Virus record (IMG/VR): IMGVR_UViG_2690316099_000013
DNA: 9,385 bases
Direction: 5' to 3' (one strand)
Origin: a virus
Lineage: Duplodnaviria > Heunggongvirae > Uroviricota > Caudoviricetes
A program made the position numbers and the translations under genes. This document shows positions 1 to 9,385 of the stretch, one piece after another (position 1 is the first letter of the stretch; every line of letters begins with the position of its first letter). Under the pieces are notes generated by a model, which did no database searches, was not told the DNA's origin, and saw nothing but the letters and a program-made list of their open reading frames with translations.

Positions 1-73
1 AAATCAATATTGTGCGCGGTCAGCTCGTTCCTGGGGGGCGGCTGGGCGTGAAGATTTACAAAATTGAGAGTGA

Positions 74-628
74 GTGATCGTAAATATGATATATCCGGAA
101 ATTACAGGCAAAAGCGGCGAGCATTTACGTCTAAAAACGCTGGAAGCCGTCTGGATCCAGGGGAAATTACGGATGTGGGGGCGTTGGTCGTATATAGGTG
201 GTGGCAAACCAGGAAATATGTTCAATCAGTTGCTGGCATCCAAAAAACTGACAAAAACCGCGGTCAATGAAGCCCTGCGTAGAATCAGGGAGTCAGGGAT
301 TGATAAACCAGAGCTGGAAGCATTCTTGCGAGAGATGATCGCTGGCAGACAGAAGAGCTGGTTGTCTCACTGTACTGATGCAGAGGCGTTACGCATTGAT
401 GGGGTGATAAGTAAAGCGCTTGCACGTTATCCTGGATTGATTGATATCCTGCGGCAAAGGTACGAAGGGCGGGGGATGAGTAAACGCAAAATGGCTGAAT
501 TGTTGAATGAGGTGCACCCGGAATGGTGTTTTAGTACATGCGAAAAGCGAATTGCTAATTGGTTGGCTGTTGCTGAATATGCGCTATACATCCCTATGCG
601 AGAATCGTTTGCTCAAAAAATGTCTTGA
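74..628 (+). CDS. Putative late-gene antiterminator (Q-like), assigned by position rather than recognised sequence
   Basis: Complete 184-aa ORF (GTG 74; alternative ATG 86; stop TGA 626-628), bounded upstream by an in-frame TGA at 71-73. It is the last ORF before a promoter-like element and a strong intrinsic terminator at 713-737, which is the Q / PR' / tR' arrangement of lambdoid phages. I do not recognise the protein as lambda Q and see no classical CxxC...CxxC zinc motif. Confidence 0.5.
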   Translation: MIVNMIYPEITGKSGEHLRLKTLEAVWIQGKLRMWGRWSYIGGGKPGNMFNQLLASKKLTKTAVNEALRRIRESGIDKPELEAFLREMIAGRQKSWLSHCTDAEALRIDGVISKALARYPGLIDILRQRYEGRGMSKRKMAELLNEVHPEWCFSTCEKRIANWLAVAEYALYIPMRESFAQKMS

Positions 629-653
629 TTTTTTACGCATAAACTGTTTCAAT
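625..653 (+). promoter_or_regulatory. Candidate PR'-like late promoter (-35 TTGATT, 17-bp spacer, extended -10 TGtTTCAAT)
   Basis: TTGATT at 625-630 and TTCAAT at 648-653 are separated by 17 bp, with TG at 645-646. The element lies between the Q-like stop and the terminator at 713-737, where PR' and the qut site lie in lambdoid phages. Hexamer match is moderate and no transcription start is known. Confidence 0.3.
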
Positions 654-712
654 CCAGCTACGCTTCGCAAAGCTATACCGCGAGGCGAATAGCAGACATG
701 GACACCTGAAAG

Positions 713-737
713 AACCCGCTTTATGCGGGTTTTTTTG
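713..737 (+). terminator. Rho-independent terminator, tR'-like
   Basis: Perfect 7-bp stem AACCCGC (713-719) / GCGGGTT (725-731) with 5-nt loop TTTAT, followed directly by a T-run to 736. Position matches tR' downstream of Q and PR'. Confidence 0.75.
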
Positions 738-859
738 TGCCCGAAAAGCGGTACAGGACGTTAAATGCGCTGGTGGTTGCGAATGCCGGTCTTTCAGCTT
801 GCTGGCTTTTTCGACAAGAGGTATTGGTATGTCACGTTAACCGGAAAAGGGAAAAAGGC

Positions 860-1057
860 ATGCTAAAACAGCAGGATATGACCGAAACCGCCAGAGTGGT
901 GTTTAATGAATTAAGCGTCACCGAACCGGCGACCGTCGGGGAAATTGCGCAGAATACTTACCTTTCACGCGAACGCTGCCAGTTAATCCTGACCCAGCTT
1001 GTTATGGCGGGTCTGGCAGATTATCAGTTCGGTTGTTACAGACGCCTTCCGCAGTGA
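860..1057 (+). CDS. Small hypothetical protein (66 aa), possible winged-helix/HTH DNA-binding fold
   Basis: ATG 860 is preceded by AAGGG at 847-851; stop TGA 1055-1057. The segment ATVGEIAQNTYLSRERCQLILTQLVMAGL looks HTH-like. The longer ORF-track version (737..1057) would start inside the terminator T-run, so the internal ATG is preferred. Confidence 0.4.
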   Translation: MLKQQDMTETARVVFNELSVTEPATVGEIAQNTYLSRERCQLILTQLVMAGLADYQFGCYRRLPQ

Positions 1058-1207
1058 AGGCTTTTTAATTTGTGGTAATGGGCGGCTGGTGGGTGTTAGC
1101 GGCACCTGCCAGCCATCTGCTCATGCGTTGGGGTCACAAGCAAACCTCAGGCCCATCTGCTTTGCGCAAAAGCGGTATGAGCCTATCAGAGAAGTGCTTA
1201 TTGATCT

Positions 1208-2257
1208 ATGGCCAATACTGTAAAAATATCCAGTTGTGAGTTAATCAACGCTGATTGCCTGGAATTTATCCAGACCTTACCGGAAAATTCTGTCGATCTG
1301 ATAGTCACAGACCCGCCATACTTTAAAGTGAAGCCCGAGGGCTGGGATAACCAGTGGGAGGGCGACGATGATTACCTGAAATGGCTGGACCAGTGTCTGG
1401 CGCAGTTCTGGCGGGTGCTGAAACCTGCCGGAAGTCTTTACCTGTTCTGTGGTCATCGCCTGGCATCTGACACCGAAATCATGATGCGTGAGCGCTTTAA
1501 TGTGCTGAACCACATTATCTGGGCGAAGCCGTCCGGACGCTGGAACGGGTGCAATAAGGAAAGTCTGCGGGCGTATTTTCCGGCAACAGAGCGCATTCTG
1601 TTTGCAGAACATTATCAGGGACCGTATCGCCCGAAAGATGATGGCTATGTGGCACAGGGGCGCGAGCTAAAACAGCACGTCATGGCCCCGCTGATTTCTT
1701 ACTTTCGTGATGCGCGTAAATCACTGGGAATAACGTCAAAACAGATAGCGGAAGCCACCGGAAAGAAAAACATGGCTTCGCACTGGTTTGGTGCCAGTCA
1801 GTGGCAGTTACCGAACGAGGGTGATTACAATAAATTGCAGGCGTTGTTTGCGCGTGTTGCGGCAGAAAAACATCAGCGCGGGGAACTGGAAAAGCCACAC
1901 CACCAGCTGGTCAGCACATACAGTGAGCTGAACCGGCAGTATACGGAACTGCTGAGTGAATATAAAAATTTGCGGCGGTATTTCGGTGTGACGGCGCAGG
2001 TTCCGTACACCGATGTCTGGACGCATAAACCGGTGCAGTACTATCCAGGGAAACATCCGTGCGAAAAACCGGCAGAAATGCTGCAGCAGATAATCAACGC
2101 GAGCAGTCGTCCGGGAGACCTGGTTGCAGATTTTTTTATGGGTTCAGGTTCAACGGTAAAAGCGGCGATGGCACTGGGGCGTTGTGCGATTGGTGTTGAG
2201 CTGGAGACCGGACGTTTTGAACAGACAGTCAGGGAAGTTCAGGATTTAATCGTTTGA
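1208..2257 (+). CDS. DNA methyltransferase, beta-class amino-MTase (N6-adenine or N4-cytosine); no cognate restriction gene seen
   Basis: 349-aa ORF with the catalytic DPPY motif near the N-terminus (LIVTDPPY) and the AdoMet-binding motif FxGxG near the C-terminus (DFFMGSGST). This motif order (IV before I) is typical of beta-group amino-methyltransferases. Stop TGA 2255-2257. Confidence 0.85.
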   Translation: MANTVKISSCELINADCLEFIQTLPENSVDLIVTDPPYFKVKPEGWDNQWEGDDDYLKWLDQCLAQFWRVLKPAGSLYLFCGHRLASDTEIMMRERFNVLNHIIWAKPSGRWNGCNKESLRAYFPATERILFAEHYQGPYRPKDDGYVAQGRELKQHVMAPLISYFRDARKSLGITSKQIAEATGKKNMASHWFGASQWQLPNEGDYNKLQALFARVAAEKHQRGELEKPHHQLVSTYSELNRQYTELLSEYKNLRRYFGVTAQVPYTDVWTHKPVQYYPGKHPCEKPAEMLQQIINASSRPGDLVADFFMGSGSTVKAAMALGRCAIGVELETGRFEQTVREVQDLIV

Positions 2258-2306
2258 AACGGATGAGATTGCAGAATTAATTACGCACCATTATTATTCT
2301 GCTCCC

Positions 2307-2382
2307 GGCCCTTTAGCTCAGTGGTGAGAGCGAGCGACTCATAATCGCCAGGTCGCTGGTTCAAATCCAGCAAGGGCCACCA
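2307..2382 (+). tRNA. ileZ: tRNA-Ile2 (anticodon CAU, presumably lysidine-modified; reads AUA)
   Basis: 76-nt cloverleaf: acceptor GGCCCTT/AAGGGCC, D-arm GCTC..GAGC, anticodon loop CTCATAA, T-loop GGTTCAAATCC, 3' CCA encoded. Closely resembles E. coli ileX-type tRNA as I recall it. Symbol is by analogy with the ileZ-argN-argO triplet of Stx phages. Confidence 0.85.
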
Positions 2383-2389
2383 TCACATA

Positions 2390-2466
2390 CCGCCATTAAC
2401 TCATCAGGATAGAGCGCCAGCCTTCGAAGCTGGTTGCGCGGGGTTCGAGTCCTCGATGGCGGTCCA
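2390..2466 (+). tRNA. argN: tRNA-Arg (anticodon UCG; reads CGA/CGG)
   Basis: 77-nt cloverleaf: acceptor CCGCCAT/ATGGCGG, anticodon stem CCAGC/GCTGG with loop CTTCGAA (anticodon TCG), T-arm CGGGG-TTCGAGT-CCTCG, discriminator T, CCA encoded. The unusual 5' C and a 3-bp D-stem lower confidence slightly. Confidence 0.75.
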
Positions 2467-2479
2467 TTATCTGTACCCT

Positions 2480-2556
2480 GCGTTGTTAGCTCAGCCGGAC
2501 AGAGCAATTGCCTTCTAAGCAATCGGTCACTGGTTCGAATCCAGTACAACGCGCCA
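2480..2556 (+). tRNA. argO: tRNA-Arg (anticodon UCU; reads AGA/AGG)
   Basis: 77-nt cloverleaf: acceptor GCGTTGT/ACAACGC, D-arm GCTC-AGCCGGACA-GAGC, anticodon stem ATTGC/GCAAT with loop CTTCTAA (anticodon TCT), T-arm ACTGG-TTCGAAT-CCAGT, discriminator G, CCA encoded. An N-gap follows 3 nt downstream. Confidence 0.85.
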
Positions 2557-2715
2557 CGCNNNNNNNNNNNNNNNNNNNNNNNNNNNNNNNNNNNNNNNNN
2601 NNNNNNNNNNNNNNNNNNNNNNNNNNNNNNNNAGAGCCTTATACTGAAATATACCTGGCTCAGGATATTGTTGAAAATATTTTATGTTTGTCAAAAATAA
2701 AAGTTCTGTTAAGTA

Positions 2716-3069
2716 TTGATTGAGTGTTTGTTATACGGTCTAATGGTTTTTTCAGCATTAAATATTTATCATTCATATGGTGTGGGTAGAGTGAATATTG
2801 ATGAGGCGTCGGGGTGTTTCATCCTTAGGCAGCGTATTGATATAGTCAATGCAGCACGAGCAAAGGCCTTCAGCCGTTTGACAGTTTTGTTCTGTACTCC
2901 TGATCGTCTTTCGGGAAGAGACGTTATTATTCTGAATAGTGATGCTATACAGAGGGTTTGCGATGAGTTCATGGTTGCTAATTCAGAATTATTTGCTCTT
3001 GTTCAGGAGTACAACAGAATAGCCAGGACCTGTGGTATGGATGAACTTCGGATTACTCATCTGGGGTAG
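2716..3069 (+). CDS. Orphan hypothetical protein in the stx-equivalent cargo slot; start uncertain (ATG 2716 or 2743, GTG 2782 or 2791)
   Basis: Open frame ending TAG 3067-3069 with an AT-rich leader at 2633-2790. From the GTG at 2791, 10 of 93 codons are AGG, AGA, AUA, CGA or CGG, the codons decoded by the three adjacent tRNAs. I recognise no family. No convincing Shine-Dalgarno precedes any candidate start. Confidence 0.4.
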   Translation: MIECLLYGLMVFSALNIYHSYGVGRVNIDEASGCFILRQRIDIVNAARAKAFSRLTVLFCTPDRLSGRDVIILNSDAIQRVCDEFMVANSELFALVQEYNRIARTCGMDELRITHLG

Positions 3070-3149
3070 ATACATATCTGGATTATCACCTGTTACGGTA
3101 AAAAGTGATTGCTTACTGTTTTTGTGAATGGCATTGCAGCAGCCGGATA

Positions 3150-3236
3150 ATGTCAGTGCTGGCTGACGGTGTGCTGGTGGCGGGTGTGGTGGTTGTTGCT
3201 TTCCCGTTGCTGAAAAAGAAAACGCCAGACTGTTAG
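3150..3236 (+). CDS. Small hydrophobic peptide (28 aa, MSVLADGVLVAGVVVVAFPLLKKKTPDC); paralogue of the 3' part of the 3797-3949 gene
   Basis: ATG 3150, TAG 3234-3236. The first 11 codons are identical in protein to codons 26-36 of the downstream gene and differ only at synonymous third positions. DNA upstream (3098-3149) resembles the 5' part of the downstream gene but carries an in-frame stop, so this may be a decayed copy expressed from an internal ATG, or a remnant. Confidence 0.35.
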   Translation: MSVLADGVLVAGVVVVAFPLLKKKTPDC

Positions 3237-3374
3237 CCGGGTATCAGTTAGCGGGAGAAATTTTTAAATACTTCACAATTCAGGCGGTTGACTGTTGNNN
3301 NNNNNNNNGTGTGACTTTCTCTGTGGGCTGGTCACCCCCGGGCGCAGGCTCACCCACTAAAAGGAAAAGTCACG

Positions 3375-3800
3375 ATGTTTGGTATTTTCAAAAAGAAAAC
3401 CCGCAAGGCCATTACCGAGGTGAAGAAGATGGAGAACCGTGACGCAGTGGAGGCGACCGTCTGGGGCGCGTACTCCATTGCATACGCTGACGGCACCTGT
3501 GACGCGAAAGAAATCGCGGTACTGGAAAAAACCATTGCAGCACTTCCTGTCTTTGCGCCGTTCTCCGGTGAGATTGCACAAATGAGTGCAAATATCCGCG
3601 CCCGTTATGAAGCGTCGCCGCGTTCTGCCAATGCCGAAGCTCTTCGTCAGCTGGCTGATGTTGCCGGTACTGATGATGCAGTTAATGTGCTGTGCCTGTG
3701 TCTGGATATCGCTGACCAGGACGGTATCGCTCAGGAAGAAGAAGCGCAACTGAAGAAAATTGCGCAGGCGCTGCAGTTGCCGCTGGAGCAGTACCTGTGA
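3375..3800 (+). CDS. TerB-like domain protein (tellurite-resistance TerB / DjlA-N-like fold)
   Basis: 141-aa ORF, ATG 3375 preceded by AAGGA; stop TGA 3798-3800. It contains two segments with the TerB signature pattern (AYADGTCDAKEIAVLEKTIAAL and DIADQDGIAQEEEAQLKKIAQALQL), compared against the plasmid TerB sequence from memory. Codon usage is ordinary for E. coli, with no AGA, AGG or AUA. Confidence 0.6.
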   Translation: MFGIFKKKTRKAITEVKKMENRDAVEATVWGAYSIAYADGTCDAKEIAVLEKTIAALPVFAPFSGEIAQMSANIRARYEASPRSANAEALRQLADVAGTDDAVNVLCLCLDIADQDGIAQEEEAQLKKIAQALQLPLEQYL

Positions 3801-3949
3801 AAAGTGCGCGCCTTGTGCTGGCTGTCATCCTGTTGTTTCTGGTAGTGGTGGTTGATTTCACCGGACGACTGATGTCGGTGCTGGCAGATGGTGTGCTGGT
3901 GGCGATGGCGCTGGTCGTGCTCCGGCCTTTACTGCGTAAATCTGAATAA
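3797..3949 (+). CDS. Small two-TM membrane protein (50 aa, MKSARLVLAVILLFLVVVVDFTGRLMSVLADGVLVAMALVVLRPLLRKSE), translationally coupled to the TerB-like gene
   Basis: GTG 3797 overlaps the TerB-like stop (GTGA, 3797-3800). Alternative starts are GTG 3815 or ATG 3872. Two hydrophobic helices and a basic C-terminal tail. Stop TAA 3947-3949. Confidence 0.45.
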   Translation: MKSARLVLAVILLFLVVVVDFTGRLMSVLADGVLVAMALVVLRPLLRKSE

Positions 3950-3958
3950 CATCACACA

Positions 3959-3995
3959 AAAGGCATCTGCGGATGCCTTTGACGGGGTGTTTTTT
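3959..3995 (+). terminator. Candidate hairpin / weak terminator between the cargo module and the lysis cassette
   Basis: 9-bp stem AAAGGCATC (3959-3967) / GATGCCTTT (3972-3980) with loop TGCG, followed by a T6 run at 3990-3995 after a 9-nt spacer. A second T-rich tract lies at 4014-4024. Non-canonical spacing, so this is tentative. Confidence 0.3.
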
Positions 3996-4035
3996 ACGGG
4001 TCGCTGGTGGCCCTTTTTTATTTTCAGGAGGAAGT

Positions 4036-4428
4036 ATGTCTGAACCCTTATCCGGTTCCGGCACGGCTGCGGCGCTGGGGGGCGCGACGGTATTCGGGCT
4101 GTTTACCGGGATGGATTTCGGGATTGTGTTTGGCGCGTTCGCCGGGGCGTTATTTGTGGCAACGATGCCGCAGTCACTTTCAGTCTGGCGCGTGGTGGCG
4201 CATTTTCTGGTGTCGTTTATTGTCGGCGTGCTGGGAGCGCGTGTGCTGTCAGCCTGGATTGCATCAAAAACAGGGTATGACGGTACATCAGCAGATGCGC
4301 TTTGCGCGGTGCTGGTCTCGGTGGTGTCGGTGAAGATTCTCTCGTTCATCCACCAGCAGGATATTGCATCGCTGGTGTCCGGTGTGTTCTCCCGCCTGCG
4401 GGGTGGAGGAGGCGGCAATGTTAAGTAA
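4036..4428 (+). CDS. Holin-like multi-TM membrane protein (130 aa), first gene of the lysis cassette
   Basis: ATG 4036 with a strong Shine-Dalgarno AGGAGG at 4026-4031. It has 3-4 predicted hydrophobic helices, Gly-rich segments and a charged C-terminus (RLRGGGGGNVK), and sits directly upstream of the endolysin. Call is by topology and synteny, not recognised homology. The ORF-track start at 3973 includes the terminator region and is rejected. Confidence 0.55.
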   Translation: MSEPLSGSGTAAALGGATVFGLFTGMDFGIVFGAFAGALFVATMPQSLSVWRVVAHFLVSFIVGVLGARVLSAWIASKTGYDGTSADALCAVLVSVVSVKILSFIHQQDIASLVSGVFSRLRGGGGGNVK

Positions 4429-4693
4429 CCTTCCCGGATTGCTGAATGTGGCGTTATGCACGGTTATCGTGCTGACGCTCTTTTTTTATCGTCGCCGTGA
4501 TTCCAGACATAAACCGCTGGTGTCATGGCTGGCCTGGCTGCTGATGCTGCTGTATGCCTTTGCGCCCCTCAGCTATCTGTGTGGTCGCCCGTTAGCAACG
4601 GGCTGGCTGGAAGTGTTTTTTAACCTGCTGTTCTGCGTGCTGGTGATACGCGCACGCGGGAACGTCACAAAAATCTTTCCATTGTTGAGGTGA
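4418..4693 (+). CDS. Second small membrane protein of the lysis cassette (91 aa; holin or antiholin-like, 2-3 TM)
   Basis: ATG 4418 preceded by GGAGGAGG at 4405-4412 with a 5-nt spacer. It overlaps the upstream gene by 11 nt, and its stop TGA 4691-4693 abuts the endolysin start. Hydrophobic helices LLNVALCTVIVLTLFFY, LVSWLAWLLMLLYAFAPL and WLEVFFNLLFCVLVI. Confidence 0.5.
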   Translation: MLSNLPGLLNVALCTVIVLTLFFYRRRDSRHKPLVSWLAWLLMLLYAFAPLSYLCGRPLATGWLEVFFNLLFCVLVIRARGNVTKIFPLLR

Positions 4694-4695
4694 AT

Positions 4696-5031
4696 ATGCC
4701 GGGTAAATTCAGATTCAGCCGTCGCAGTGAAAAAAATCTGGAGGGTGTCAAACCACAGCTGGTTGCTGTAGTTCGCCGTGCGCTGGAGCTGACGGAGGTT
4801 GATTTCGGTATTACGGAAGGCCTGCGCAGTAAGTATCGCCAGAAACAGCTGGTTGCGGAAGGGAAAAGCCAGACCATGAACAGCCGCCACCTGACCGGTG
4901 ATGCGGTGGATGTTGTGGCCTACATTGGCAGTCAGGTGTCATGGGAGTGGCCTCTGTACGAGAAAATCGCACAGGCATTTAAGCAGGCTGCCGCAGAGCT
5001 GGGGATCGCTATCGAATGGGGCGGGGACTGG
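4696..5031 (+). CDS. Endolysin, peptidase M15-like (VanY / L-alanyl-D-glutamate peptidase type), 3' end lost in the N-gap
   Basis: ATG 4696 preceded by GAGG at 4687-4690. The first 112 aa (MPGKFRFSRRSEKNLEGVKPQLVAVVRRALELTEVDFGITEGLRSKYRQKQLVAEGKSQTMNSRHLTGDAVDV...) resemble small phage M15-family endolysins from memory, and the gene sits directly after two holin-like genes. Truncated at 5032. Confidence 0.7.
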
Positions 5032-5604: not shown

Positions 5605-5872
5605 NNNNNNNNNNNNNNNNNNNNNNNNNNNNNNNNNNNNNNNNNNNNNNNNNNNNNNNNNNNNNNNNNNNNNNNNNNNNNNNNNNNNNNNNNNNNNNNN
5701 NNNNNNNNNNNNNNNNNNNNNNNNNNNTAAATTCTTTCTGTCGCCGCGAATACTCAAATGTTGATCAGTGCCCGGTGCGGCGACGGGCTTCGATATCAGG
5801 AGACGATGATGGAAAAAAACAGAAAACAAACCGATTGTAATTGGTGCTGATGCTGCTCCGTTTAAGTTTGAG

Positions 5873-6202
5873 TTGTCTCAACTGGTGGAGATGCGTATCA
5901 GTGATGAATGGGGTGAGGTTAAAGCCCGCGCGCAGTATGCGGATGGCGAAAACCAGTACTTGATCCACTACAAAGCAGCTGATGGTCGCGCCACGACGGA
6001 GTGGTTTGGTGAGTCAATGCTGGAAGCAACAGAAGATGATCGTCATCCGGGTTGTCCGGTATTTGCCGGTATGAAATTACCGGAAGGTGCAGTTGAACTG
6101 CAGCCGGGTGAGGTGTTCGTAATGACAGACATCATTGATGGTAAACCGCAGTATTCGCGTATTGAAATGAATAGTAAGAGTGCTCGCCTGATTCGTGAGT
6201 AA
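5873..6202 (+). CDS. Hypothetical protein; probably the 3' part of a longer gene starting at ATG 5806/5809 that is split at an A7 homopolymer (5813-5819)
   Basis: Frame is open from 5810 to TAA 6200-6202; the track start is TTG 5873. An AGGAG Shine-Dalgarno at 5798-5802 precedes ATG ATG at 5806-5811, but that frame stops after 14 codons. Removing one A from the A7 run fuses it to the long ORF. Confidence 0.5.
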   Translation: MSQLVEMRISDEWGEVKARAQYADGENQYLIHYKAADGRATTEWFGESMLEATEDDRHPGCPVFAGMKLPEGAVELQPGEVFVMTDIIDGKPQYSRIEMNSKSARLIRE

Positions 6203-6210
6203 CAGGCATT

Positions 6211-6241
6211 ACAGCAGCCCTTCACTCTAAGGGGTTGCTGT
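6211..6241. terminator. Hairpin between convergent genes (possible bidirectional terminator)
   Basis: About 10-bp stem ACAGCAGCCC (6211-6220) / GGGGTTGCTGT (6231-6241) with one G-T wobble and a 10-nt loop. It lies between the + gene stop (6202) and the minus-strand region. No clean U-tract. Confidence 0.25.
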
Positions 6242-6812
6242 AATGTGAGAAATAAAAAACCGGTCACAGGGAGCAGCTACACAGAAGCGGCCGGCGAAGA
6301 CCGCCAATACCACCCATGCATTGATGCAACATACTAATGACAATAGCCGCTATTGATGTAAATGCAATGTTATGCATCGACGAAAATAAAAAACCNNNNN
6401 NNNNNNNNNNNNNNNNNNNNNNNNNNNNNNNNNNNNNNNNNNNNNNNNNNNNNNNNNNNNNNNNNNNNNNNNNNNNNNNNNNNNNNNNNNNNNNNNNNNN
6501 NNNNNNNNNNNNNNNNNNNNNNNNNNNNNNNNNNNNNNNNNNNNNNNNNNNNNNNNNNNNNNNNNNNNNNNNNNNNNNNNNNNNNNNNNNNNNNNNNNNN
6601 NNNNNNNNNNNNNNNNNNNNNNNNNNNNNNNNNNNNNNNNNNNNNNNNNNNNNNNNNNNNNNNNNNNNNNNNNNNNNNNNNNNNNNNNNNNNNNNNNNNN
6701 NNNNNNNNNNNNNNNNNNNNNNNNNNNNNNNNNNNNNNNNNNNNNNNNNNNNNNNNNNNNNNNNNNNNNNNNNNNNNNNNNNNNNNNNNNNNNNNNNNNN
6801 NNNNNNNNNNNN

Positions 6813-7037
6813 ATTTTTTGAAAATCTTACATTTACAACCTTACCCTGTCCTTTTATTAAAACCGTATTATCGTTTTCAAGAACAAGATGAATATTCTCT
6901 GTGGCTAAATAGTAAATGTAATGTGAGACATTGTGACGTTTTAGTTCAGAATAAAACCAGTGATAGTTTAAATTATTTCGCACTTTATCGAATATTTGTT
7001 TAAAAATGGCAACCTGAGCCATTGTAGTACCTTCCAT
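6813..7037 (-). CDS. AT-rich hypothetical protein, N-terminal 75 codons only (rest lost in the 417-nt N-gap)
   Basis: Minus-strand ORF beginning [37 protein letters not shown]... The second ATG (minus-strand codon at 7022-7020) has a good Shine-Dalgarno (GGAAGG, 7-nt spacer) and is the more likely start. Low GC relative to flanking DNA, with AUA, AGA and CGA codons present. It lies 57 nt downstream of the RHH gene on the same strand. Confidence 0.5.
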
Positions 7038-7079
7038 GTGATATGAGGGGGCGTAGTCTGCACGATTATCTAAATTGCT

Positions 7080-7313
7080 TCAATCTGGTCTAACCTGTTT
7101 TCTGAGCAATTCAGTAATGTCACTCTTTTCTTTGTTTGCTTCAGGCGAAACTCTTTTTTCTGAGCACAGTCTCCGGCGGCAGGCTTCAATGACCCAGGCT
7201 GAGAAATTCCCGGACCCTTTTTGAACAAGAGCGATGTTAATTTGTTCAATCATTTGGTTAGGAAAGCGGATGTTGCGGGTTGTTGTTCTGCGGGTTCTGT
7301 TCTTCGTTGACAT
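7080..7313 (-). CDS. Ribbon-helix-helix (Arc/MetJ/CopG-type) DNA-binding protein, 77 aa
   Basis: The segment RNIRFPNQMIEQINIALVQKGSGNFSAWVIEACRRRL fits the RHH strand-helix-G-helix pattern, compared with P22 Arc/Mnt and TraY from memory. Basic N-terminal tail; 6 of its Arg codons are AGA. Start ATG on the minus strand at 7313-7311; stop at 7082-7080. Confidence 0.6.
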   Translation of the reverse strand: MSTKNRTRRTTTRNIRFPNQMIEQINIALVQKGSGNFSAWVIEACRRRLCSEKRVSPEANKEKSDITELLRKQVRPD

Positions 7314-7317
7314 GAGG

Positions 7318-7363
7318 TTGCCCTGTATTCAGTGTCGCTGATTTGTATTGTCTGAAGTTGTTT
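7318..7363. repeat. 46-bp exact direct repeat, copy 1, abutting the N-gap
   Basis: TTGCCCTGTATTCAGTGTCGCTGATTTGTATTGTCTGAAGTTGTTT is identical to 7469-7514 on the other side of the 105-nt gap. Confidence 0.9.
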
Positions 7364-7468
7364 NNNNNNNNNNNNNNNNNNNNNNNNNNNNNNNNNNNNN
7401 NNNNNNNNNNNNNNNNNNNNNNNNNNNNNNNNNNNNNNNNNNNNNNNNNNNNNNNNNNNNNNNNNNNN

Positions 7469-7514
7469 TTGCCCTGTATTCAGTGTCGCTGATTTGTATT
7501 GTCTGAAGTTGTTT
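7469..7514. repeat. 46-bp exact direct repeat, copy 2, abutting the N-gap
   Basis: Identical to 7318-7363. The sequence continues into lambda-like right-end DNA (TTACGTTAAGTTGATGCAGATC...). Confidence 0.9.
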
Positions 7515-7852: not shown

Positions 7853-8392
7853 ATGGAAGTCAACAAAAAGCAGCTGGCTGACATTTTCGGTGCGAGTATC
7901 CGTACCATTCAGAACTGGCAGGAACAGGGAATGCCCGTTCTGCGAGGCGGTGGCAAGGGTAATGAGGTGCTTTATGACTCTGCCGCCGTCATAAAATGGT
8001 ATGCCGAAAGGGATGCTGAAATTGAGAACGAAAAGCTGCGCCGGGAAGTTGAAGAACTGCGGCAGGCCAGCGAGACAGATCTCCAGCCAGGGACTATTGA
8101 GTACGAACGCCATCGACTTACGCGTGCGCAGGCCGACGCACAGGANAATGCCAGAGACTCCGCTGAAGTGGTGGAAACCGCATTCTGTACTTTCGTGCTG
8201 TCGCGGATCGCAGGTGAAATTGCCAGTATTCTCGACGGGATCCCCCTGTCGGTGCAGCGGCGTTTTCCGGAACTGGAAAACCGACATGTTGATTTCCTGA
8301 AACGGGATATCATCAAAGCCATGAACAAAGCAGCCGCGCTGGATGAACTGATACCGGGGTTGCTGAGTGAATATATCGAACAGTCAGGTTAA
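7853..8392 (+). CDS. nu1: Terminase small subunit gpNu1
   Basis: ATG 7853, TAA 8390-8392. The translation [74 protein letters not shown]...[14 protein letters not shown] matches lambda Nu1 almost residue for residue from memory. An N at 8146 coincides with an apparent in-frame loss of about 2 codons. Confidence 0.95.
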
Positions 8393-9385
8393 CAGGCTGC
8401 GGCATTTTGTCCGCGCCGGGCTTCGCTCACTGTTCAGGCCGGAGCCACAGACCGCCGTTGAATGGGCGGATGCTAATTACTATCTCCCGAAAGAATCCGC
8501 ATACCAGGAAGGGCGCTGGGAAACACTGCCCTTTCAGCGGGCCATCATGAATGCGATGGGCAGCGACTACATCCGTGAGGTGAATGTGGTGAAGTCTGCC
8601 CGTGTCGGTTATTCCAAAATGCTGCTGGGTGTTTATGCCTACTTTATAGAGCATAAGCAGCGCAACACNNNNNNNNNNNNNNNNNNNNNNNNNNNNNNNN
8701 NNNNNNNNNNNNNNNNNNNNNNNNNNNNNNNNNNNNNNNNNCCGTGGTATGGCAAAAAGCACCGGGATAACACGCTCACCATGAAGCGTTTCACTAATGG
8801 TCGTGGCTTCTGGTGCCTGGGCGGTAAAGCGGCAAAAAACTACCGTGAAAAGTCGGTGGATGTGGCGGGTTATGATGAACTTGCTGCTTTTGATGATGAT
8901 ATTGAACAGGAAGGCTCTCCGACGTTCCTGGGTGACAAGCGTATTGAAGGCTCGGTCTGGCCAAAGTCCATCCGTGGCTCCACGCCCAAAGTGAGAGGCA
9001 CCTGCCAGATTGAGCGTGCAGCCAGTGAATCCCCGCATTTTATGCGTTTTCATGTTGCCTGCCCGCACTGCGGGGAGGAGCAGTACCTTAAATTTGGCGA
9101 TAAAGAGACGCCGTTTGGCCTCAAATGGACGCCGGATGACCCCTCCAGCGTGTTTTATCTCTGCGAGCATAATGCCTGCGTCATCCGCCAGCAGGAGCTG
9201 GACTTTACTGATGCCCGTTATATCTGCGAAAAGACCGGGATCTGGACCCGTGATGGCATTCTCTGGTTTTCGTCATCCGGTGAAGAGATTGAGCCACCTG
9301 ACAGTGTGACCTTTCACATCTGGACAGCGTACAGCCCGTTCACCACCTGGGTGCAGATTGTCAAAGACTGGATGAAAACGAAAGG
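8367..9385 (+). CDS. A: Terminase large subunit gpA, 5' portion (continues beyond the window)
   Basis: GTG 8367 overlaps the Nu1 3' end in the +1 frame. The translation [100 protein letters not shown]... matches lambda gpA from memory. The frame stays open across the 8669-8741 gap to 9385. It is absent from the ORF track only because no stop lies within the window. Confidence 0.95.
   Translation, partial: MNISNSQVNRLRHFVRAGLRSLFRPEPQTAVEWADANYYLPKESAYQEGRWETLPFQRAIMNAMGSDYIREVNVVKSARVGYSKMLLGVYAYFIEHKQRNXXXXXXXXXXXXXXXXXXXXXXXXXPWYGKKHRDNTLTMKRFTNGRGFWCLGGKAAKNYREKSVDVAGYDELAAFDDDIEQEGSPTFLGDKRIEGSVWPKSIRGSTPKVRGTCQIERAASESPHFMRFHVACPHCGEEQYLKFGDKETPFGLKWTPDDPSSVFYLCEHNACVIRQQELDFTDARYICEKTGIWTRDGILWFSSSGEEIEPPDSVTFHIWTAYSPFTTWVQIVKDWMKTK

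Follow-up and report, generated by a model that had tools for sequence, protein, structure and literature searches.

A tciA-tciB gene pair and a probably misplaced contig in the toxin slot of a phiP27-like late operon

Background

In Shiga toxin (Stx) phages, a Q-like gene, PR'/tR', a methyltransferase gene and an Ile2/Arg/Arg tRNA triplet precede stxAB. The same order is found in the DNA analysed here, a stretch of 9,385 nt referred to as the window; the question is what occupies the slot between the tRNAs and the lysis genes. A first-pass annotation, made from the letters of the sequence, took the ORFs in this slot for a candidate undescribed system. Taken at face value, this would put a new cargo system in the place of Shiga toxin. 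The evidence points instead to a named and widespread gene pair, and to an odd combination that probably arose from the scaffolding of repeated prophage DNA. With a probability of about three in four, the best overall explanation is an stx-negative, phiP27-like prophage of an ETEC-like E. coli, in which the true slot cargo is a moron of two genes, tciA-tciB, together with a conserved leader, and into which a piece of other DNA has been misplaced.

An Stx-type late operon without toxin genes

The window and the scaffolded draft record CXDD01000164.1 (GCA_001253215.1; 9385 nt) are one and the same, with identical gene coordinates (Table 1). Ahead of the slot lie a Q-type antiterminator gene, tR', a methylase gene and the ileZ-argN-argO tRNAs, as in Stx-converting late operons. 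The proposed backbone runs from the Q-like gene through the tR'-like terminator, a 65-aa ORF, the methylase and the Ile2/Arg/Arg tRNAs to the slot, and on to two holins and an M15 endolysin. Complete genomes have the same Q-like gene 5' of the methylase. Its start is at 74 in Table 1 and at 86 according to the gene caller of the source. The tR'-like hairpin lies 84 nt past its stop, in a 91-nt stretch with a fold z of -5.9. A candidate PR' (TTGATT-17-TTCAAT, about 624-652) was picked by eye; it is not among the results of a consensus promoter scan of the window.

Table 1. Features of the window in and around the slot
Feature	Position	Strand	Evidence and remarks
Q-like late antiterminator candidate, DUF1133 family	74..628	+	PF06576 E 5.6e-103; weak PF06530 Phage_antitermQ
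tR'-like intrinsic terminator	712..737	+	hairpin AACCCGC/GCGGGUU, then U7
65-aa ORF, phrog_331	860..1057	+	weak TrmB-like wHTH; phiP27 counterpart P27p23; also in Stx2 phages
Terminator-like hairpin 3' of 65-aa ORF	1044-1061		
N6/N4 DNA methyltransferase, orphan type II-like	1208..2257	+	PF01555 E 2.6e-44; PADLOC MTase_II E 1.2e-159
tRNA(CAT)	2307-2382	+	ARAGORN, Rfam; Ile2 per PGAP in relatives
tRNA-Arg(TCG)	2390-2466	+	ARAGORN, Rfam, PGAP names in relatives
tRNA-Arg(TCT)	2480-2556	+	ARAGORN, Rfam, PGAP names in relatives
Scaffold gap, 73 N	2560..2632		terminator hairpin and 5' half of tciA leader here in intact relatives
665-nt piece, separate contig	2633..3297	+	AT-rich start; N-runs at both ends
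ORF92, 92-aa small protein gene, phrog_2873	2791..3069	+	GTG start; conserved core
43-aa DUF3927 ORF	3105..3236	+	PF13064 95.6 bits (cut-off 25)
Scaffold gap, 11 N	3298..3308		
tciA leader, 3' 66 nt (full ~133 nt)	3309..3374	+	leader alignment; includes RBS
tciA, TerB-family, 141 aa, predicted all-helical	3375..3800	+	= WP_000466941.1; phrog_632; PF05099
tciB, DUF3927 peptide, 50 aa	3797..3949	+	PF13064 E 1.4e-14, 54.2 bits (cut-off 25); phrog_1470; WP_000833653.1 (RefSeq)
Two hairpins, tciB-holin interval	3959..4013	+	second (3998-4013) followed by T-run
Holin PF16931	4036-4428	+	profile match; phiP27-type lysis cassette (4036..5031)
Holin PF05449	4418-4693	+	profile match; phiP27-type lysis cassette
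M15 endolysin	from 4696	+	ended by N-run; phiP27-type lysis cassette (4036..5031)

Comparison with Stx phages bore out the layout. Positions 725-2557, with the 65-aa ORF, the methylase and the tRNA block, share 90.6% identity with phiP27 and 88-90% with many Stx2a/c/d phages; at about 90% identity, this block is found ahead of stxAB in phiP27 and in over 170 Stx2 phages. In many Stx2a/c/d phages, stxA begins about 90 nt past the same tRNA-Arg. The holin-holin-M15 cassette is also shared with phiP27 (90% identity). As first proposed, this is the position of stx in such a late operon, here a phiP27-like one, and it holds neither stxA nor stxB, no ORF in it having Stx-like domains. No stx gene is hidden in its two N-runs, because these total just 84 nt.

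The difference from phiP27 lies within the slot. There, the leader, tciA and some 58 nt at the 5' end of tciB have given way to stxA2e, stxB2e and a single reverse ORF, and the last ~95 nt of tciB are kept beside the holin gene as a stump. The two sequences diverge exactly where stx2e sits; in the window the pair is intact and toxin genes are absent. In phiP27, stx2e has displaced tciA, leaving the tciB stump, and tciAB and stx behave as alternatives to one another in this slot. A TciA homologue is present in 94 phage records, of which none is named as an Stx phage. Comparing stx-positive with stx-negative slots upheld the layout; in place of undescribed cargo it gave the known tciAB.

A probable contig from another prophage

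Positions 2560-3308 are composed of 73 N, 665 nt and 11 N. In all likelihood the 665-nt piece is a mis-scaffolded contig from another prophage, a conclusion drawn from comparison with relatives and not from direct sight of the join. The blocks on either side (1-2559 and 3309-5031) are 99.9% identical to AST85 and other complete ETEC genomes, where 106 nt separate them; the same arrangement is seen with the identical methylase in 10 more contexts. The first-pass annotation had read one contiguous cargo of four ORFs. The ORFs do lie where it placed them; their contiguity was not confirmed, given the short interval in the relatives.

The piece is complete in 1,184 complete genomes, and in none of these is it found beside tciA. 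ETEC6 and TW10722 carry it in one prophage, and in another the block up to the tRNA-Arg joined to tciAB. At 99.2-100% identity, with both ORF92 and the truncated DUF3927 ORF, it is present in the post-Q slot of Qin/mEp460-like prophages (mEp460_ev081, E. coli strain 64, ETEC6); identity is 99.8-100% to loci L003 and L016 and 99.2% to phage mEp460. In these prophages it is preceded by a different Q and a two-tRNA block, and it is followed by PasD-like sequence, then by iraM or TolA-like genes, then by a class II holin with lysozyme, and never by tciA. The native piece starts 29 nt past a tRNA-Arg and runs into ...TCTGGTTTGCGGGG. Its end continues with (G/C)TCTGGTTTGCGGGG in all 121 viral copies, and a tciA leader lies within 1.5 kb of that end in none of them. 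In other genomes the PasD-like sequence starts ~33 nt past its natural end. A 2026 preprint places Pas sRNAs near prophage TerB genes; PasA, PasC and PasD were sought in the window, and only a 14-nt match within DUF3927 coding sequence was obtained. The piece is probably a small contig of a second, Qin/mEp460-like prophage in the same genome, where it would natively follow a near-identical tRNA-Arg; the scaffolder would have put it into the gap between the tRNA-Arg and tciA.

The order of tRNA side, 665-nt piece and tciA side could also be real. It would then represent a rare recombinant with two cargo cassettes in tandem, ORF92 with a truncated tciB followed by tciA-tciB; the N-runs would be ordinary unresolved gaps, and the end of the piece would run into GTGTGACTTTC. 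Lambdoid late regions are highly mosaic, and a combination of ORF92 with tciAB is biologically possible, since the lineage of loci L030-L033 has an ORF92-family gene (44% identical) directly 5' of an intact leader-tciA-tciB-holin cassette. However, the order is absent from all 5,426 complete genomes searched, from 80 viral tciA loci (none has the piece or an ORF92-family gene upstream of tciA) and from the 121 viral ends. Scanning genome contigs for the junction of piece, N11 and tciA side gave no match, nor did scans of viral contigs for both hypothetical real junctions. A real order would also mean that the 5' 70 nt of the leader have been lost, though the leader is intact in 161 of 164 loci. 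Finally, the window has eight N-runs, and every departure from synteny in the scaffold falls exactly at one of them; a second scaffold join (5728-6395 to 6813-7363) is absent from all 5,426 genomes. A real tandem order is therefore considered unlikely.

The sizes of the scaffold gaps are demonstrably unreliable. N-runs of 451, 123, 73 and 1 N stand against true lengths of 346, 97, 97 and 7 nt, respectively, and a 46-nt duplicate is found on both sides of the N-run at 7364-7468, where E2348/69 has a true overlap. Treating the N-runs as length-faithful masks was rejected, because several lengths differ from every relative and one run conceals this overlap. One coincidence favours a real junction: in intact relatives the 8-mer AGAGCCTT lies 72 nt past the tRNA, and in the window the 73-N run is followed by AGAGCCTT. 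It was set aside for two reasons: the scaffold's other gap estimates miss by 24-151 nt, and the two prophage types are homologous over the 30 nt that directly follow the tRNA. That the N-gaps might hide a join of unrelated DNA had been foreseen in the first-pass annotation. This is largely what was found, two prophages having very probably been joined.

ORF92 and a tciB remnant

ORF92 is a genuine coding gene. It had been annotated as an orphan ORF at 2716-3069; the gene is real, but the TTG start at 2716 was given up, as the 5' extension is non-conserved and the core begins at GTG 2791. Compared with a homologue of equal length and 57% identity, it has a dN/dS of 0.27 and no indels, and its family comprises 19 representative clusters. 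The AF2 model is a helical hairpin (pLDDT 84.6). A fold search against viral models and the PDB returned generic helical hairpins, none at E <= 0.001. Database and structure searches placed ORF92 in a catalogued family with no specific fold match, and matched the TerB-like protein and peptide to a known pair.

The 43-aa DUF3927 ORF corresponds to residues 23-51 of a JLK-2012-type tciB (97% identity), the first hydrophobic helix being missing, and positions 3137-3297 are 92% identical to the JLK-2012 tciB region. It is the 3' remnant of such a tciB. The tciB stumps beside stx2e and beside ORF92 mark a recurrent exchange point, which helps to account for the entry of toxin cassettes into lambdoid late operons.

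The tciA-tciB pair

TciA matches PF05099 with 33 bits (cut-off 24.4; E 8.3e-08), a partial match over model positions 60-106 of 118; PF05099 is preassigned on nearly all of its homologues. TerB was reportedly defined by Anantharaman et al. in 2012 through an acidic D-G-x(n)-E motif that occurs twice and has a proposed role in metal binding. TciA has both acidic motifs (D-G...E), and residues D39, G40, E46, D114 and G117 are invariant among 27 homologues. Its AF2 model has six helices (pLDDT 83). The best PDB match of the model is 2h5n (PG1108), which we take to be TerB-like (prob 1.00, TM 0.49-0.52, E 0.03); a sequence search of solved structures gave chance matches to PNPase and none to a solved TerB. 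According to hydropathy, TciB has hydrophobic helices at residues 5-20 and 27-43, with positively charged ends. The GTG start of tciB overlaps the tciA stop (GTGA, 3797-3800), and tciB lies immediately 3' of tciA in all 80 viral loci.

Roughly one in three complete E. coli genomes (~1,890 of 5,426) has the pair, in a position from which it would be expressed upon induction. What had been called a candidate undescribed system, a TerB-like protein with a hydrophobic peptide, is by homology a known gene pair, named in P1 and catalogued as phrog_632 and phrog_1470, and not a new system. The suggestion that it has no demonstrated function held: the P1 names tciA, tciB and tciC rest on homology, and in P1 these genes are non-essential in a CRISPRi screen and tciABC is dispensable for plaques (PMC10695390; PMC9603915). 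PADLOC v2.0.0, including Shango and Bunzi, gave 0 matches at E <= 0.01 for TciA, ORF92 and both DUF3927 ORFs; its MTase_II models were matched within the window by the methylase only. An NCBIfam search gave nothing for the cargo proteins.

The ~133-nt tciA leader is strongly conserved. Its 3' 66 nt, the part present in the window, directly precede tciA in all of 80 viral loci. An Rfam covariance search of the window gave only tRNAs above gathering score, and the leader of an intact relative gave nothing at E <= 1. RNAalifold on 35 distinct leaders produced a stable fold with 2 double-change pairs and a covariation term of -0.52. This does not demonstrate an RNA structure, because there is almost no covariation.

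A possible role at the membrane

tciA and tciB are probably translationally coupled, and would be transcribed by Q-modified polymerase passing the flanking hairpin terminators; low-level transcription from their own leader is also possible. TciB may form a helical hairpin in the inner membrane with both ends cytoplasmic, and may keep the soluble TciA, with its presumed TerB fold, at the inner face of that membrane. By analogy with TerB proteins from ter operons and from defence systems that contain TerB, the pair could sense membrane state or protect the membrane, blunting superinfecting phage or pore-forming colicins. This function as a membrane sensor or protector is proposed tentatively. 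A more far-reaching reading, which we consider doubtful, would make tciAB and its conserved leader a minimal phage-borne TerB membrane-surveillance module and the ancestral occupant of the slot. A TerB sensor tethered by a two-helix peptide would then keep out superinfecting phages or colicins, or act against TerB-type defences of the host; stx2e (phiP27) and the ORF92 cassette (Qin/mEp460-like) would have invaded later, each leaving a tciB stump. In a weaker variant, the novelty would lie in a genuine tandem of ORF92 and tciAB in this strain.

The position just 5' of the holin genes would be explained if tciAB were a lysis-timing accessory, with the peptide and its partner modulating holin triggering. 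The pair does lie beside holins in phiP27-like prophages, and TciB is holin-sized with two hydrophobic helices. However, the P1 pair is found among tRNAs in the C1-controlled ban operon, far from lysis genes, and a 1.9-kb esterase gene lies between pair and holin in JLK-2012 and PPyecE. Homologues are also present in virulent N4-like and jumbo phages, and a lysis role is regarded as improbable. Resistance of the lysogen to tellurite or oxidative stress, as the database name would have it, is very unlikely. TciA does belong to the TerB family, and names in the source include 'tellurite/colicin resistance protein'; these names rest on homology only, and tellurite resistance through ter operons requires TerC, TerD, TerE, TerZ and others (PMC9603915; PMC7371120). 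Neither the window nor the neighbouring loci that were inspected contain any of these genes.

Comparison with known systems

One of the closest known systems is tciA-tciB-tciC of P1 (NC_005856 70233-70929; annotation of Lobocka et al. 2004), with TciA 85% identical over all 141 residues. As in P1, the window has a TciA orthologue whose stop is overlapped by a DUF3927 gene, tRNA genes are close by, and function is assigned by homology only. A tblastn search of the window with P1 TciC gave chance matches only (E of 7 or more). The systems differ in that the P1 genes belong to a C1-controlled early operon, ban, whereas here the pair lies in a Q-dependent operon and would be expressed late; the conserved leader is not found in P1.

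The terZABCDEF clusters are associated with tellurite resistance, phage inhibition and colicin resistance. TciA resembles their TerB in Pfam family, in its predicted all-helical structure and in its two conserved acidic D-G...E motifs. In contrast to these clusters, tciAB stands alone, with a tiny membrane peptide instead of TerC, TerD, TerE and TerZ. TerB proteins are reported to be membrane-associated, as cited in bioRxiv 10.1101/2022.05.11.491447.

Anti-phage systems are increasingly found to contain TerB domains. Shango, Bunzi and Dionysus combine a TerB domain with membrane-embedded partners, and 'membrane surveillance' has been proposed for them (bioRxiv 10.1101/2022.05.11.491447; 10.1101/2025.09.30.679545). 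tciAB differs from these in having no PADLOC match, helicase/ATPase or pore-forming effector gene, and in being carried by phages rather than in defence islands; it resembles them in joining a TerB domain to a predicted membrane partner.

Late-operon layout and relation to Stx phages

All of the elements listed in the first-pass annotation are present in the window. That annotation described a Stx-phage-like late operon with uncharacterised cargo in the slot between the tRNA triplet and the lysis cassette, where Stx phages carry stxAB. The Stx-type layout is correct: over window 725-2557, identity is 90.6% to phiP27 and 88-90% to Stx2a, Stx2c and Stx2d phages, and more than 170 Stx-named records match. 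In the matching Stx2 phages and phiP27, the 65-aa ORF, the methylase and ileZ/argN/argO are followed by stxA about 90 nt on. The lysis cassette is also of the phiP27 type (window 3855-5031, 90% identity). Together, these two blocks identify the prophage as a stx-negative, phiP27-like phage. Downstream of the lysis cassette there is a 109-aa ORF (window 5873-6202) which is 98-100% conserved in phiP27 and ETEC prophages; it belongs to phrog_1935, where no function is assigned.

Features of the late operon and slot, in window order
Feature	Coordinates	Remarks
Q-like DUF1133 gene	74-628	upstream of slot
Strong hairpin with U7 tract	~712-737	
65-aa ORF	860-1057	
N6/N4 DNA methylase	1208-2257	
Three tRNA genes	2307-2556	CAT (Ile2 per RefSeq relatives), Arg-TCG, Arg-TCT
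N-run		73 N
665-nt piece	2633-3297	contains the two ORFs below
'Orphan' ORF (ORF92 is its 2791-3069 part)	2716-3069	
43-aa DUF3927 ORF	3105-3236	
N-run		11 N
Leader	3309-3374	66 nt
tciA	3375-3800	TerB-family ORF
tciB	3797-3949	50-aa DUF3927 ORF; GTG start overlaps TerB stop
Two hairpins, then holin-holin-M15 endolysin cassette		3' of tciB

A probably misplaced contig in the slot

NCBI record CXDD01000164.1, from draft assembly GCA_001253215.1, corresponds in full to the window, with identical gene coordinates; it contains eight N-runs. On either side of the 665-nt piece, the window (1-2559 and 3309-5031) matches AST85 and other complete ETEC genomes at 99.9% identity. The spacer between tRNA-Arg and the sequence at 3309 is exactly 106 nt long there, and further contigs with the identical methylase share this arrangement. 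The 665-nt piece itself matches a segment of Qin/mEp460-like prophages at 99.8-100% identity. In those prophages it starts 29 nt after a tRNA-Arg which has a 69-nt identical core in common with the tRNA-Arg of the window, and it continues naturally with ...TCTGGTTTGCGGGG..., followed by iraM or TolA-like genes and by a class II holin. Both prophages are found, at separate loci, in the complete genomes of ETEC6 and TW10722.

The four cargo ORFs had been read as contiguous. However, the 665-nt piece adjoins the tciA half in none of 5,426 complete E. coli genomes, and is upstream of tciA in none of 80 viral tciA loci. Its end continues naturally in all 121 viral copies, none of which has the tciA leader within 1.5 kb. 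The window keeps only the last 66 nt of this leader, a further sign that the join is artificial.

The scaffold is unreliable elsewhere. Two N-runs of 451 and 123 stand for 346 and 97 nt of true sequence. Inside the large terminase gene, 73 N (8669-8741) stand for 97 nt, and at 8146 a single N stands in for 7 nt of lambda-type Nu1; each shortfall is divisible by three, but scaffolding gap estimates are the simplest explanation. N-run 7364-7468 has 46 nt duplicated on either side (7317-7363 and 7469-7514). In E2348/69 the corresponding contig ends truly overlap, and the gap estimate is about 151 nt off. A 46-nt duplicate is the k-1 overlap for k = 47, and the pattern fits de Bruijn assembly at this k followed by scaffolding and gap filling. 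A second join, of 5728-6395 to 6813-7363, brings together segments that are adjacent in none of the 5,426 complete E. coli genomes. Yet another prophage may be the source of the lambda-like right-hand end of the scaffold, with its YnfO-like ORF, cos, Nu1 and terminase A.

Two points favour a real junction. A member of the ORF92 family (95 aa, 44% identical) lies directly 5' of an intact leader-tciA-tciB-holin-holin-M15 cassette at comparison locus L030 (3001-4063; GCA_002042945.1) and at L031-L033. The family recurs in the slot in this other lineage, and both cargos can therefore coexist in nature. The 8-mer AGAGCCTT also lies 72 nt after the tRNA in intact relatives, and the window has 73 N and then AGAGCCTT; this coincidence is given no weight because the gap estimates of the scaffold are 24-151 nt off. 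From the contiguous flanks in other genomes, the different natural context of the 665-nt piece and the unreliable scaffold, it is concluded with about 85% confidence that scaffolding inserted a small contig of a second prophage between tRNA-Arg and tciA. The N-gaps thus very probably hide a contig join, which the first-pass annotation had itself named as a ground for refuting its reading. Its reading of the slot stands; contiguity and novelty of the cargo do not. The feature is a known, widespread module combined with a probable assembly artefact.

Alternative occupants of the slot

The 'orphan' ORF is a genuine gene. Its conserved core, ORF92, comprises 92 aa from the GTG at 2791, and dN/dS is 0.27 against a 57%-identical homologue of equal length. 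An exhaustive search gave 19 representative clusters, some just 35-44% identical. The AF2 model is a long helical hairpin (pLDDT 84.6); fold and family searches returned no informative match. The 43-aa ORF, a 'DUF3927 family protein' in RefSeq, is 97% identical to residues 23-51 of JLK-2012-type TciB, and the first hydrophobic helix is missing. It is a 5'-truncated tciB of that type, and probably a remnant rather than a working gene. An AT-rich ORF92 cassette has thus taken the place of tciA and of the start of tciB in the Qin/mEp460-like lineage, as stx2e did in phiP27. In other genomes a PasD-like sRNA starts about 33 nt past the natural end of the 665-nt piece (comparison locus L003, 5699-5738). 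The PasA sRNA terminator stem has a 14-nt exact match to DUF3927 coding sequence at window 3152-3165; no Pas sRNAs are present in the window.

Right-hand homology to phiP27 (locus L204) starts within tciB, the last ~95 nt of which are kept beside the holin (7395-7490, against window 3855-3949). The terminator hairpin after tRNA-Arg is kept on the left of stx2eAB (5836-5882). With stx2eAB flanked by this hairpin and the tciB stump, the toxin genes and one reverse ORF have taken the place of the leader, of tciA and of the first ~58 nt of tciB. This makes at least three alternative occupants for the slot, with a recurrent right-hand breakpoint inside tciB.

The tciA-tciB module

The TerB-like protein is 85% identical to phage P1 TciA over its full length. 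It falls in phrog_632 ('tellurite resistance') and the DUF3927 peptide in phrog_1470 ('TciB-like'); identical proteins are in RefSeq (WP_000466941.1 and WP_000833653.1). The cargo, proposed to be novel, is therefore already known and named. Of 5,426 complete E. coli genomes, 1,892 contain matching tciAB DNA. The TciA family extends across chromosomes of Enterobacterales and contigs of ~110 kb, which by their size may be P1-like plasmid prophages; remoter homologues are found in N4-like, jumbo and Pseudomonas phages. In all 80 viral contigs with a close TciA, tciB is directly 3' of tciA. Database protein P0060 (196 aa, from a 33.9-kb Logan contig) has TciA and TciB as one fused ORF (PF05099 and PF13064); such a fusion would fit a joint role for the two, but it could be a frameshift error.

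A leader of ~133 nt upstream of tciA (e.g. comparison locus L004, 8099-8231) is nearly invariant in 161 of 164 loci with varied upstream contexts (mean column identity 89%). It is conserved even in the JLK-type clade, where TciA is 41% identical. The predicted fold is stable (z = -3.95), with almost no covariation and no match to Rfam families. The leader may act as a regulatory RNA, as a control site in the DNA or as a linker for recombination.

The AF2 model of TciA is all-helical (pLDDT 83), with PG1108 (2h5n) as a modest best structural match, and two acidic D-G...E motifs in the protein are invariant. TciB contains a pair of hydrophobic helices, and its ends carry positive charge. No PADLOC model matches TciA, which therefore does not belong to any described defence system. 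The genes are coupled, co-occur strictly, and combine TerB family features with a hydrophobic-hairpin peptide; they are flanked by hairpin terminators within a Q-type late operon and are allelic with stx. The leading proposal for their function, which might well prove wrong, is that tciAB would be made on induction via read-through, that TciB would hold TciA to the inner membrane on its cytoplasmic side, and that the pair could sense the state of the membrane or protect against superinfecting phage or colicins. The models for this are the inhibition of phages and the resistance to colicins associated with ter clusters, together with the 'membrane surveillance' role suggested for the TerB-domain defence systems Shango, Bunzi and Dionysus (PMC7371120; bioRxiv 10.1101/2022.05.11.491447; 10.1101/2025.09.30.679545). 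Control of lysis timing and tellurite or stress resistance are less likely candidate functions. The gene order is that of phage P1, in which, as in the window, tciA is followed by the DUF3927 gene tciB with overlapping stop and start.
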